The notes under the pieces: model-generated
Told to the model about the DNA's origin: nothing
The model's input: the letters and a program-made list of their open reading frames with translations, nothing else
Database searches by the model: none
From: Enterobacteria phage FrBurgundy
Length of the DNA: 4,200 nucleotides
Strand: one strand, 5' to 3'
Sequence record: PP430142.1
Position numbers and translations under genes: made by a program
Shown here: positions 1 to 4,200 of the stretch, one piece after another
Layout of the letters: every line of letters starts with the position of its first letter
Numbering within the stretch: position 1 is the stretch's first letter

Positions 1-56
1 TCCCCCCTTAGGGGGTCACCTCACACAGCAGTATTTCACTGAGTATGAGAGGACAT
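1..56 (+). other. 5' untranslated region of a Qbeta-like ssRNA phage genome, with a 5'-proximal C-rich/G-rich hairpin (cccccc 2..7, loop tta, ggggg 11..15)
   Basis: Seen in sequence: C-run 2..7 can pair with G-run 11..15 across a 3-nt loop. No ORF begins before position 45. Resembles the Qbeta 5' leader as I recall it, which starts with G residues that are absent here. Confidence 0.7.
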
Positions 57-1319
57 ATGCCTAAATTACCACGTGGTCTGCGTTTCGGAGCCGATAATGA
101 AATTCTTAATGACTTTCAAGAGCTCTGGTTTCCAGATCTCTTTATCGAATCTTCCGACACGCATCCGTGGTACACACTGAAAGGTCGTGTGCTGAACGCC
201 CATCTTGACGATCGCCTACCTAACGTAGGTGGCCGCCAGGTTAGACGTACTCCACATCGTGCTACCGTTCCGATTGCCTCTACAGGCCTTCGTCCGGTAA
301 CAACCGTTCAGTATGATCCTACAGCACTATCGTTCTTATTGAACGCTAGTGTTGATTGGGATTTCGGTAATGGCGATAGCGCGAACCTGGTCATTAATGA
401 CTTTCTGTTTCGCACTGTTGCACCTAAGGACTTCGATTTTTCGAATTCCTTAGTTCCTCGTTATACTCAGGCCTTCTCCGCTTTTAATGCTAAATATGGC
501 ACTATAATCGGTGAAGGGCTCGAGACTATAAAATATCTCGGGCTGTTACTGCGCAGACTGCGTGAGGGTTACCGCGCTGTTAAGCGTGGCGATTTACGTG
601 CTCTTCGTAGGGTTATCCAGTCTTACCATAATGGTAAATGGAAACCGACTACTGCTGGTAATCTCTGGCTTGAATTCCGTTATGGTCTTATGCCTCTCTT
701 CTATGACATTAAAGATGTCATGTTAGATTGGCAGAAACGCCACGATAGGATCCAACGCCTCCTTCGGTTTTCAGTCGGTCATGGTGAGGATTATGTTGTC
801 GAATTCGACAATCTATACCCTGCCGTCGCCTACTTTAAACTTAAAGGTGAGATTACACTCGAACGCCGTCACCGTCACGGTATATCCTACGCTAATCGCG
901 AGGGATATGCTGTTTTCGATAACGGTTCCCTTCGGCCTGTGTCCGATTGGAAGGAACTTGCCACTGCATTCATCAATCCGCATGAAGTTGCTTGGGAGTT
1001 AACTCCCTACAGCTTCGTTGTTGATTGGTTTTTGAATGTCGGTGACATACTTGCTCAGCAAGGTCAGCTATATCATAATATCGATATTGTAGACGGTTTT
1101 GACAGACGTGACATTCGTCTCAAATCTTTCACCATAAAAGGTGAACGAAATGGGCGACCTGTTAACGTTTCTGCTGACCTATCTGCTGTCGATACATTTT
1201 ATAGCCGATTCCATACGAGCAAGCTTCCGTTCGCTACACTTGATCTCGATACTACCTTCAGTTCGTATAAACACGTTCTGGATAGTATCTCTTTATTAAC
1301 CCAACGCATTAAGCGTTGA
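57..1319 (+). CDS. A2: Maturation protein A2 (420 aa), which in Qbeta-like phages binds the F-pilus and also serves as the lysis protein by inhibiting MurA
   Basis: ORF track 45..1319 in frame. Product begins MPKLPRGLRFGADNEILNDF at the ATG at 57..59, preceded by a purine-rich Shine-Dalgarno-like gagagg at 47..52. Length of 420 aa and the sequence match my recollection of Qbeta A2. Stop TGA at 1317..1319. The lysis function is established knowledge for Qbeta, not visible in the sequence. Confidence 0.92.
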   Translation: MPKLPRGLRFGADNEILNDFQELWFPDLFIESSDTHPWYTLKGRVLNAHLDDRLPNVGGRQVRRTPHRATVPIASTGLRPVTTVQYDPTALSFLLNASVDWDFGNGDSANLVINDFLFRTVAPKDFDFSNSLVPRYTQAFSAFNAKYGTIIGEGLETIKYLGLLLRRLREGYRAVKRGDLRALRRVIQSYHNGKWKPTTAGNLWLEFRYGLMPLFYDIKDVMLDWQKRHDRIQRLLRFSVGHGEDYVVEFDNLYPAVAYFKLKGEITLERRHRHGISYANREGYAVFDNGSLRPVSDWKELATAFINPHEVAWELTPYSFVVDWFLNVGDILAQQGQLYHNIDIVDGFDRRDIRLKSFTIKGERNGRPVNVSADLSAVDTFYSRFHTSKLPFATLDLDTTFSSYKHVLDSISLLTQRIKR

Positions 1320-1339
1320 AACTTTGGGTCAATTTGATC

Positions 1340-1741
1340 ATGGCAAAATTAGAGACTGTTACTTTAAGTAACATCGGGAAAGATGGAAAACAAACTCTGG
1401 TCCTCAACCCGCGTGGGGTAAATCCCACTAACGGTGTTGCCGCGCTTTCACAAGCGGGTGCAGTTCCTGCGCTGGAGAAGCGTGTTACCGTTTCGGTATC
1501 TCAGCCTTCTCGTAATCGTAAGAACTACAAGGTCCAGGTTAAAATCCAGAACCCGACCGCTTGTACTGCAAACGGTTCTTGTGACCCATCCGTTACTCGC
1601 CAGGCGTATGCTGACGTGACCTTTTCGTTCACGCAGTATAGTACCGATGAGGAACGAGCTTTTGTTCGTACAGAGCTTGTCGCTCTGCTCGCTAGTCCTC
1701 TGTTGATCGATGCTATCGATCAGCTGAATCCAGCGTATTGA
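1340..1741 (+). CDS. cp: Major coat protein (133 aa including initiator Met)
   Basis: ATG at 1340..1342 gives MAKLETVTLSNIGKDGKQTLVLNPRGVNPTNG...TACTANGSCDPSVTRQAYADVTFSFTQYSTDEERAFVRTELVALLASPLLIDAIDQLNPAY, recognisable as Qbeta-type coat including the two Cys in the FG loop. The ORF-track start at 1316 is a TTG overlapping the A2 stop and is not the real start. Terminates at UGA 1739..1741. Confidence 0.95.
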   Translation: MAKLETVTLSNIGKDGKQTLVLNPRGVNPTNGVAALSQAGAVPALEKRVTVSVSQPSRNRKNYKVQVKIQNPTACTANGSCDPSVTRQAYADVTFSFTQYSTDEERAFVRTELVALLASPLLIDAIDQLNPAY

Positions 1742-2338
1742 ACACTGCTCATTGCCGGTGGTGGCTCAGGGTCTAAACCCGATGATCCGGTTGTTGTTAC
1801 TCCGGATCCACCGATAGATCCGCCGCCAGGGACAGGTAAGTATACCTGTCCCTTCGCAATTTGGTCCCTAGAGGAGGTTTACGAGCCTCCTACTAAGAAC
1901 CGACCGTGGCCTATCTATAATGCTGCTCGACTCCCGCTTCGCCAGTTCGATGTTGCCCTTGAAGATCTTTTGGGCAATACGAAATGGCGTGATTGGGATT
2001 CGCGGCTTAGTTATACCACGTTCCGCGGTTGCCGTGGCAACGGTTATATTGACCTTGACGCGAGTTATCTTGCTACTGATCAGGCTATGCGTGATCAGAA
2101 GTACGATATTCGCGAGGGCAAGAAACCCGGTGCTTTCGGTAACATTGAGCGATTCATTTATCTTAAGTCGATAAATGCTTATTGCTCTCTTAGCGATATT
2201 GCGGCCTATCACGCCGATGGTGTGATAGTTGGCTTTTGGCGCGATCCATCTAGTGGTGGTGCCATACCGTTTGACTTCACTAAGTTTGATAAGACTAAAT
2301 GTCCTATTCAAGCCGTGATAGTCGTTCCTCGTGCTTAG
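1340..2338 (+). CDS. A1: A1 read-through protein (minor capsid protein): coat protein extended by suppression of the coat UGA (decoded as Trp), about 332 aa
   Basis: Same frame as coat (1340 and 1970 both position mod 3 = 2). I translated 1742..1969 by hand and found no in-frame stop between the coat UGA and TAG 2336..2338 (followed immediately by TAA 2339..2341). The extension reads TLLIAGGGSGSKPDDPVVVTPDPPIDPPPGTGKYTCPFAIWSLEEVYEPP...GNTKWRDWDSRLSYTTFRGCRGNGYIDLD...KCPIQAVIVVPRA, matching the Qbeta read-through domain as I recall it. Confidence 0.86.
1739..1741 (+). promoter_or_regulatory. Leaky UGA stop codon of the coat gene (programmed translational read-through site)
   Basis: tga at 1739..1741 followed by an open in-frame extension of 198 codons. 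Read-through of the coat UGA at a low percentage by tRNA-Trp is established for Qbeta. Confidence 0.85.
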
Positions 2339-2342
2339 TAAC

Positions 2343-2348
2343 TAAGGA
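2343..2348 (+). promoter_or_regulatory. Shine-Dalgarno sequence for the replicase gene (taagga)
   Basis: taagga at 2343..2348, 8 nt upstream of the replicase ATG at 2357. Confidence 0.7.
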
Positions 2349-2352
2349 TGAA

Positions 2353-2372
2353 ATGCATGTCTAAGACAGCAT
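2353..2372 (+). promoter_or_regulatory. Coat-protein translational operator hairpin spanning the replicase start codon
   Basis: atgcatgtc-taa-gacagcat: pairs 2353-2372, 2354-2371, 2355-2370, 2356-2369, bulged A2357, then 2358-2368, 2359-2367, 2360-2366, 2361-2365, with 3-nt loop taa 2362..2364. The replicase ATG (2357..2359) lies in the 5' arm. An 8-bp stem with bulged A and 3-nt loop is the known Qbeta operator geometry. Confidence 0.8.
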
Positions 2373-4126
2373 CTTCGCATAACTCTCTCAGCGCACAATT
2401 GCGCCGAGCTGCGAACACAAGAATTGAGGTCGAAGGTAACCTCGCACTTTCCATTGCCAACGATTTACTGTTGGCTTATGGTCAATCGCCATTTAGCTCT
2501 GAGGCTGAGTGTATTTCACTCAGTCCGAGATTCGACGGGACCCCGGATGACTTTAGGATAAATTATCTTAAAGCCGAGATCATGTCGAAGTATGACGATT
2601 TCAGCCTAGGTATTAATACCGAAGCTGCTGCCTGGGAAAAGTTCCTAGCAGCAGAGGCTGAATGTGCTTTAACGAACGCTCGTCTCTATAGGCCTGACTA
2701 CAGTGAGGATTTCAATTTCTCACTGGGCGAGTCATGTATTCACATGGCTCGCAGAAAAATAGTCAAGTTAATAGGAGATGCTCCGTCCGTTGAGGGTATG
2801 TTACGCCACTGCCGTTTTTCCGGTGGTGCCACAACAACGAATAACCGTTCGTACGGTCATCCGTCCTTCAAGTTTGCGCTTCCACAAGCGTGTACGCCTC
2901 GGGCTTTGAAGTATGTTTTAGCTCTTAGAGCTTCTACACACTTCGATATCAGAATTTCTGATATTAGCCCTTTTAATAAAGCAGTTACTGTACCTAAGAA
3001 CAGTAAGACTGATCGTTGTATTGCTATCGAACCCGGTTGGAATATGTTTTTTCAACTAGGTATCGGTGGCATCCTACGCGATCGGTTGCGTTGCTGGGGT
3101 ATCGATCTGAATGATCAGACGATAAATCAGCATCGCGCTCACGAAGGCTCCGTTACTAATAACTTAGCAACGGTTGATCTCTCGGCGGCAAGTGATTCTA
3201 TATCTCTTGCTCTCTGTGAGCTCTTATTGCCCCCAAGCTGGTTTGAGGTTCTTATGGATCTCAGATCACCTAAAGGGCGGTTGCCTGACGGTAGTGTTGT
3301 TACCTATGAGAAAATATCCTCTATGGGTAACGGGTACACATTCGAGCTTGAGTCGCTTATCTTTGCTTCTCTTGCTCGTTCCGTTTGTGAGATACTGGAC
3401 TTAGACTCGTCTGAGGTTACTGTCTACGGAGACGATATTATTTTACCGTCCTGTGCAGTACCTGCTCTTCAGGAAGTTTTTAAGTATGTTGGTTTTACAA
3501 CCAATACTAAAAAGACTTTCTCTGAGGGGCCGTTTAGAGAGTCGTGCGGTAAGCACTACTATTCTGGCGTAGATGTTACTCCCTTTTACATACGTCACCG
3601 TATAGTGAATCCTGCCGATTTAATACTGGTTTTGAATAACCTATATCGGTGGGCCACGATTGATGGCGTATGGGATCCTAGGGCCCATTCCGTATATCTC
3701 AAGTATCGTAAGTTGCTGCCTAAACAGCTGCAACGTAATACTATACCTGATGGTTACGGTGATGGAGCCCTCGTCGGATCGGTCTTGGTCAATCCTTTCG
3801 CGAAAAACCGCGGGTGGATCCGGTACGTACCGGTGATCATAGACCATACAAGGGACCGAGAGCGCGTCGAATCGGGGTCGTATCTCTACGACCTCTTTTC
3901 GCGTTGCTTCTCGGAAAGTAACGATGGGTTGCCTCTAAGGGGTCCGTCGAGTTGCGATTCTGTAGATCTATTTGCCATCGATCAGCTTATCTGCAGGAGT
4001 AATCCTACAAAGATAAGCAGGTCTACTGGCAAGTTCGATATACAGTATATCGCGTGCAGTAGCCGTGTTCTGGCACCCTACGGGGTCTTCCAGGGCACGA
4101 AGGTTGCATCTCTACACGAGGTGTAA
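2357..4126 (+). CDS. rep: RNA-dependent RNA polymerase, replicase beta-subunit (589 aa)
   Basis: ORF track 2348..4126. The true start is the ATG at 2357 (MSKTASSHNSLSAQLRRAANTRIEVEG...), not the ATG at 2348. Catalytic YGDD motif at 3425..3436 (EVTVYGDDIILP). Length and sequence match my recollection of the Qbeta replicase beta-subunit. Stop TAA at 4124..4126. Confidence 0.95.
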   Translation: MSKTASSHNSLSAQLRRAANTRIEVEGNLALSIANDLLLAYGQSPFSSEAECISLSPRFDGTPDDFRINYLKAEIMSKYDDFSLGINTEAAAWEKFLAAEAECALTNARLYRPDYSEDFNFSLGESCIHMARRKIVKLIGDAPSVEGMLRHCRFSGGATTTNNRSYGHPSFKFALPQACTPRALKYVLALRASTHFDIRISDISPFNKAVTVPKNSKTDRCIAIEPGWNMFFQLGIGGILRDRLRCWGIDLNDQTINQHRAHEGSVTNNLATVDLSAASDSISLALCELLLPPSWFEVLMDLRSPKGRLPDGSVVTYEKISSMGNGYTFELESLIFASLARSVCEILDLDSSEVTVYGDDIILPSCAVPALQEVFKYVGFTTNTKKTFSEGPFRESCGKHYYSGVDVTPFYIRHRIVNPADLILVLNNLYRWATIDGVWDPRAHSVYLKYRKLLPKQLQRNTIPDGYGDGALVGSVLVNPFAKNRGWIRYVPVIIDHTRDRERVESGSYLYDLFSRCFSESNDGLPLRGPSSCDSVDLFAIDQLICRSNPTKISRSTGKFDIQYIACSSRVLAPYGVFQGTKVASLHEV

Positions 4127-4200
4127 CCTGGGAGGGCGCCAATATGGCGCCTAATTGTGAATAAATTATCACAATTACTCTTACGAGTGAGAGAGGGGTC
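4127..4200 (+). other. 3' untranslated region (truncated at the window end) containing two perfect hairpins
   Basis: Hairpin 1: ggcgcc 4135..4140, loop aatat, ggcgcc 4146..4151, extendable by a G4134-U4152 wobble. Hairpin 2: aattgtga 4153..4160, loop ataaatta 4161..4168, tcacaatt 4169..4176. The window ends in gagagaggggtc with no terminal CCA, so the 3'-terminal hairpin looks incomplete. Confidence 0.75.

Follow-up and report, generated by a model that had tools for sequence, protein, structure and literature searches.

The DNA analysed here is a stretch of 4,200 nucleotides from Enterobacteria phage FrBurgundy (PP430142.1), given as one strand and referred to as the window; the features described below lie on the plus strand. 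When the whole 4200-base window was compared with GenBank phage records by megablast, 82 matches were found, all of them to Qβ-type phages. The best match is Enterobacteria phage FrHibiscus (PP430143.1; Qubevirus), which is 99.9% identical over window positions 6-4200, followed by FrMerlot (97.0%) and the classical Qβ isolates (about 94-96%). Base-by-base comparison shows that window coordinates equal PP430143.1 record coordinates plus 4, and that the two sequences differ by three internal substitutions (window 776, 1291, and 2803), none of which falls within 1739-2338. Four CDSs are annotated in PP430143.1: the A2 maturation-lysis protein, the coat protein, a “maturation read-through protein A1” nested on the coat gene, and the replicase. 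The four corresponding open reading frames in the window match, in order, the Pfam families Phage_mat-A, Levi_coat, Read-through, and RNA_replicase_B, each far over the curated cutoff. The resulting gene order, maturation-coat/A1-replicase without a separate lysis gene, is the Qβ order and also the layout of the annotated relatives. Judged by its sequence, the window holds nearly all of a Qubevirus genome of the FrHibiscus lineage, that is, of a Qβ-like single-stranded RNA coliphage.

The major coat protein is encoded at 1340-1738 (133 codons including Met) and matches Levi_coat over its full length (PF01819, E = 2.7e-61); the coat gene is annotated at record positions 1336-1737 in PP430143.1. 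Codon 134 is a UGA (1739-1741) followed by A, the putative recoding site. Downstream of it, the coat frame stays open for 198 sense codons (1742-2335) and is closed by tandem stops, TAG (2336-2338) and TAA (2339-2341). The extension begins with a flexible, Gly/Pro-rich linker (about 1742-1798), after which comes the globular read-through domain (about 1799-2332). The complete A1 CDS, coat plus read-through, spans 1340-2338, and is annotated as “maturation read-through protein A1” in both PP430143.1 and FrMerlot (PP430144.1). With the UGA counted as Trp, the computed product has 332 amino acids and a mass of 36.4 kDa (36.3 kDa without Met). An initial annotation made from the letters alone had placed the coat UGA at 1739, followed by 198 open codons and tandem TAG-TAA stops; translation of 1340-2344 shows these coordinates to be right to the base, although the end at 2338 leaves out the second terminal stop. 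The same annotation had named an in-frame stop between 1742 and 2335 as what would speak against it, and re-translation found zero. Its expected product of about 36 kDa agrees with the computed mass, and the similarity to Qβ A1 that it proposed is borne out by about 95% identity over the whole length of the extension.

We then searched for homologs of the extension. The sole solved protein matched by its 198 residues is the read-through domain of the Qβ “A1 protein” (PDB 3RLC/3RLK, E = 3.2e-123, extension residues 11-198), and the differences from this domain are confined to the linker and one short patch. Residues 20-197 match the Pfam “Read-through domain” (PF16814) at 308.9 bits, the cutoff being 27. 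When phage records were searched by tblastn, 85 records came up, all from Qubevirus, with every match lying under an annotated A1 or read-through CDS. A scan of IMG/VR with a profile of the extension returned four loci, two of them in metagenomic fragments that resemble Qβ and the other two in the genomes of SP and FI, and no relatives of the extension outside Qubevirus were found in it. The extension protein of FrHibiscus (PP430143.1, WZB35611.1) is 100% identical to that of the window, and its gene order and nested coat/A1 annotation are alike. Qβ shares 94.4% genome identity with the window, about 95% identity in the extension, the leaky UGA with its immediate context, the tandem TAG-TAA, and the two-domain architecture. 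More distant relatives also have the leaky UGA and the Read-through domain in common with the window: the extension identity is 70-72% for M11 and MX1 (72-74% by tblastn) and 41-45% for the Q. faecium group, SP, FI, and NL95 (37-45% by tblastn). The extensions of M11, MX1, SP, FI, and NL95 have 195-199 codons and no internal stops, as here, whereas the coat gene has 132 codons in the faecium group and 133 in the window.

The window has the maturation-coat-replicase order and the Levi_coat fold in common with the MS2-like phages (Emesvirus). Emesvirus, however, carries an overlapping lysis gene L at the coat-replicase junction, where the window has instead a 594-nucleotide in-frame coat extension. 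One may ask whether the region encodes an overlapping gene in another frame, either of the Emesvirus type or a new single-gene lysis protein, the open coat frame being secondary. The sole candidate is an open reading frame at 1920-2174 on the plus strand, offset by +1 from the coat frame, which starts with ATG, would encode 84 amino acids, and includes a hydrophobic stretch, AVAVATVILTLTRVILLLI, with a mean Kyte-Doolittle value of 2.5. A 100-codon open stretch at this site is common to the close Qβ-type strains. Nevertheless, HL4-9 and MX1 have ACG in place of the ATG, M11 and MX1 carry stops within the frame, and in NL95, HB-P22, and M11 the long open stretch is either missing or displaced. 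The ATG is also not preceded by a Shine-Dalgarno-like sequence. Were the second frame under selection, the synonymous variation of the A1 frame might be expected to drop within it, but 34 of 51 codons vary synonymously inside the candidate and 38 of 71 outside, which is not lower (P = 0.19, Fisher’s exact test). Moreover, lysis in qubeviruses is assigned to the maturation protein A2 (PMC13114773), and A2 is encoded here, as seen from the Phage_mat-A match. Apart from the replicase frame, no plus-strand open reading frame of at least 40 amino acids crosses 2338-2357. We regard the frame at 1920-2174 as a side effect of the codon pattern of A1, and a gene in another frame is highly improbable as an account of this region; since the sole candidate is not conserved, an Emesvirus-type overlapping lysis gene is not supported. 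The read-through arrangement had been described initially as a hallmark that sets Qubevirus apart from MS2-like phages with their overlapping lysis gene, and this holds for the window: the genome is that of a Qubevirus, and a conserved overlapping open reading frame is absent from the region. A1 is unique to qubeviruses, which lyse their host through the maturation protein (PMC13114773; PMC6071253). The read-through marks the window as the genome of a Qubevirus and explains the 600 nucleotides between coat and replicase.

It could also be argued that the 594-nucleotide stretch is a structured RNA spacer, serving in replicase binding or packaging, which is open by chance or composition and whose product is non-functional. 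The region does hold conserved RNA structure, including the hairpin of 1784-1808, the stem of a kissing loop (1869-1895), and a long hairpin (1922-2006) in which a compensatory pair occurs (PMC8880383; these structures are described below). However, an open frame of this length is hard to obtain by chance: when 1742-2335 was shuffled 20,000 times with its dinucleotide counts preserved, only 2 of the resulting sequences were free of in-frame stops, and the probability from base composition is 1.3×10−4. The other two frames of the same segment contain 7 and 22 stops. The frame is, in addition, kept open in both Qubevirus species despite saturated synonymous sites. In a codon-aware alignment, dN/dS of the extension between relatives and the window is 0.17-0.36, well under 1. 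Substitutions show a third-position bias, the differences from M11 being distributed as 35, 38, and 92 over the three codon positions. Indels are all multiples of three and almost all lie in the N-terminal Gly/Pro-rich linker. Across both species, 59 extension residues are invariant despite an overall identity to the faecium group of 41-45%. The product, moreover, matches a solved protein domain, and early stops in the Qβ extension are reported to give the opposite of viable phage, by the account of Hofstetter et al. (1974) contained in PMC13114773. These patterns of substitution indicate that the extension is under purifying selection in the coat frame. A pure RNA spacer accordingly has a very small chance of being the right description; the RNA structure is an added layer over coding rather than an alternative to it.

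The position of potential start codons bears on how the extension can be translated. The earliest in-frame ATG, GTG, or TTG downstream of the UGA is a TTG at 1970, so that the first 76 extension codons are reachable by read-through only, and 12 invariant Pro, Gly, Cys, or Phe positions lie within these codons. Independent initiation of the extension is ruled out on the same ground, as none of the three start codons occurs in frame between the UGA and 1970.

We further compared the recoding site among 15 relatives, comprising 13 reference genomes that span both Qubevirus species and two IMG/VR metagenomic contigs. UGA closes the coat gene in all 15, with no other stop and no sense codon found at this position, and it stays UGA across lineages whose synonymous sites are saturated. 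None of the 15 extensions, which range from 195 to 199 codons, contains an internal stop. The context from −9 to +12 (ccagcgtat UGA acactgctcatt) is identical in the window and Qβ. All examined genomes of the Q. durum type, including the window, have UGA-A and the tandem TAG-TAA, and those of the Q. faecium type (SP, NL95, FI, and HB-P22) have UGA-G and a single TAA closing A1. An A on the 3′ side reportedly favours UGA leakiness in E. coli (Engelberg-Kulka 1981); given the UGA-G of the faecium group, it is not a universal requirement.

Alignment folds of the segment from −40 to +90 (9 and 12 genomes) support no read-through-stimulating RNA element. The stem around the UGA in these folds is weak, with 4 bp and no two-sided covariation. 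A downstream stem formed by GGUGGUGG and CCGCCGCC is not preserved in the faecium group, and within the durum group it is near-invariant and therefore uninformative. With no supported stimulatory structure, the identity of the stop codon and its immediate context are the best-supported determinants of read-through. When the whole window was scanned against Rfam under permissive filters, no SECIS or other known element was detected, and no match near 1739 was obtained at E ≤ 1. Two sub-threshold matches, to mir-4869 (28 bits against a gathering score of 70) and to Pseudomonas P24 (17 against 100), are taken to be chance. Decoding of the UGA as selenocysteine through a downstream SECIS hairpin, instead of by a near-cognate tRNA-Trp, is vanishingly improbable: selenocysteine does use UGA as its codon, and the folds show some local structure 3′ of 1739-1741, but the Rfam scan is empty around the site, the stem there is as short as stated, and the UGA of Qβ, in a context identical to that of the window, is read as tryptophan (PMC6071253).

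Taken together, read-through of a leaky coat UGA, yielding an A1 protein of the Qβ type, is the reading that we favour for this phage, with a probability of about 97%, and we have seen no sequence evidence against it. Near-cognate decoding of UGA by tRNA-Trp competes with release factor 2 (RF2). By analogy with Qβ, ribosomes translating the coat gene would usually terminate at the UGA at 1739-1741, and tRNA-Trp, in competition with RF2, would misread the UGA, with its following A, a few times per hundred passes (about 5% in Qβ). Translation would then carry on in frame for 198 codons up to the tandem TAG-TAA, and with the UGA read as Trp the junction peptide would be ...NPAY-W-TLLIAGGGSGSK.... 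In the product, a normal coat domain would be joined through the flexible Gly/Pro-rich linker to a globular read-through domain that projects from the capsid. A few A1 copies per virion would replace coat subunits, and they would be needed for infectivity, as in Qβ. The rate of read-through, the insertion of Trp, the incorporation into virions, and the essential role are all carried over from Qβ, whose stop context is identical, and should be regarded as expected for the present phage. In Qβ itself, roughly 5% of ribosome passes decode the UGA as tryptophan (PMC6071253), and the read-through, the insertion of Trp, the presence of A1 in virions, and its part in infectivity go back to Weiner & Weber (1971) and Hofstetter et al. 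(1974), as these works are represented in PMC6071253 and PMC13114773. On the Qβ capsid the read-through domain points outward, and the efficiency of entry changes when it is mutated (PMC12469967). A1 read-through is a founding example of translational recoding and the basis of Qβ display technology. The A1 of the window is thus of the textbook Qβ type, and its mechanism goes no further than that of Qβ; it is already known, being annotated in the public record of essentially the same genome (PP430143.1).

The extension of the window differs from that of Qβ in length, with 198 codons here and 195 in Qβ. The three additional codons lie in the linker (window 1781-1808), which reads DDPVVVT here and D-PV--I in Qβ. 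The same stretch encodes a local RNA hairpin, predicted both by RNAfold and by the alignment fold, in which GAUCCGG (1784-1790) pairs with CCGGAUC (1802-1808). When homologous segments of Qβ-type strains were folded with RNAfold, the 7-bp stem was identical in seven strains, with loops of 5, 8, or 11 nucleotides. The apical loop has 11 nucleotides in the window and 5 in Qβ, an in-frame length polymorphism. Of the extra bases, one GAT is a duplication directly 5′ of the hairpin, and the other six belong to a (GUU)3-ACU run, an expansion of GTT/ACT, in the apical loop. Such tandem triplets, (GAT)2 and (GTT)3, point to slippage of the replicase. The length variation of the protein linker therefore coincides with an RNA loop that is able to absorb it.

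Apart from the linker, A1 in the window differs from Qβ by six substitutions at residues 196-208 (numbered with Met; window 1925-1963) and by T242S. The six are V196A, E197R, Q199P, P200L, E202Q, and K208E. All five A1 substitutions unique to the lineage (V196A, E197R, P200L, E202Q, and K208E) fall within no more than 15 residues, a clustering that is unlikely to arise at random (permutation, P < 1×10−5), and the sixth, Q199P, is otherwise found only in VK. Residue 199 corresponds to Q195 of Qβ. In Qβ, A1930G (Q195R) is a recurrent adaptive mutation in an outward-facing loop that raises viral entry (PMC12469967).

The bases of the substitution cluster also form the 5′ arm of a long RNA hairpin predicted within the read-through coding region (1922-2006). 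Its minimum free energy is predicted to be −40.9 kcal/mol here and −32.8 kcal/mol in Qβ. The core stem was recovered in a consensus fold of 11 sequences, and the window carries a specific compensatory pair of synonymous changes in it, 1948 U>C and 1981 A>G. The chance match to mir-4869, which lies at 1939-1989, is attributable to the shape of this hairpin. It is conceivable, though we hold it to be rather unlikely, that the FrHibiscus lineage has remodelled the outward loop of A1 (196-208) and lengthened the linker by three codons, either as an adaptation to pilus or host, or through co-selection with the stronger hairpin. If true, this would be a compact example of selection on both protein and RNA in a recoded gene. 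The natural variants of the lineage, namely its extended linker and its remodelled loop, in which the Qβ entry site lies, may be of value in follow-up work on A1 function.

A further RNA element, at 1869-1895, is a stem-loop homologous to “RT4” of Qβ, with a sequence identical to Qβ 1861-1894. The cryo-EM model of the Qβ genomic RNA contains a kissing loop in which ACGA of the read-through region pairs with UCGU of the replicase region (PMC8880383). Both partners are conserved in the window, the ACGA loop at 1881-1884 in the read-through gene and UCGU at 2849-2852 in the replicase gene. The A1 coding sequence is demonstrably shared with conserved RNA structures.

We also noticed several features elsewhere in the window. 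Each of its termini differs from PP430143.1 by 4 nucleotides, as is typically seen where assemblies end. Compared with Qβ, both ends (1-20 and 4180-4200) are incomplete: the 5′ GGGGA is replaced by TC and a run of C, and the 3′ end is without roughly the last 22 nucleotides of Qβ (...GATCTGCTTTGCCCTCTCTCCTCCCA). Near the 5′ end, a change of TATAAG to TATGAG creates an ATG at 45, in frame with A2 and four codons before its annotated start at 57 (window 45-59). This upstream ATG is present in GIII_C, HL4-9, and VK and absent in Qβ, FrMerlot, and FrSangria; it is probably unused, since it lies within or adjoins the Shine-Dalgarno-like GAGAGGA. At the start of the replicase gene (2348-2359), where the sequence is identical to Qβ, there are three close ATGs (2348, 2353, and 2357); the mechanical open reading frame begins at 2348, and the annotated start is 2357 (MSKT...), as in Qβ. 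Lastly, the ApeA defence system is reported to sense a stem-loop that FrSangria-like qubeviruses, FrHibiscus among them, carry in the replicase gene (bioRxiv 2026 preprint, 10.64898/2026.03.20.713152), and the location of this stem-loop corresponds to about 3586-3675 in the window (FrHibiscus record 3582-3671).
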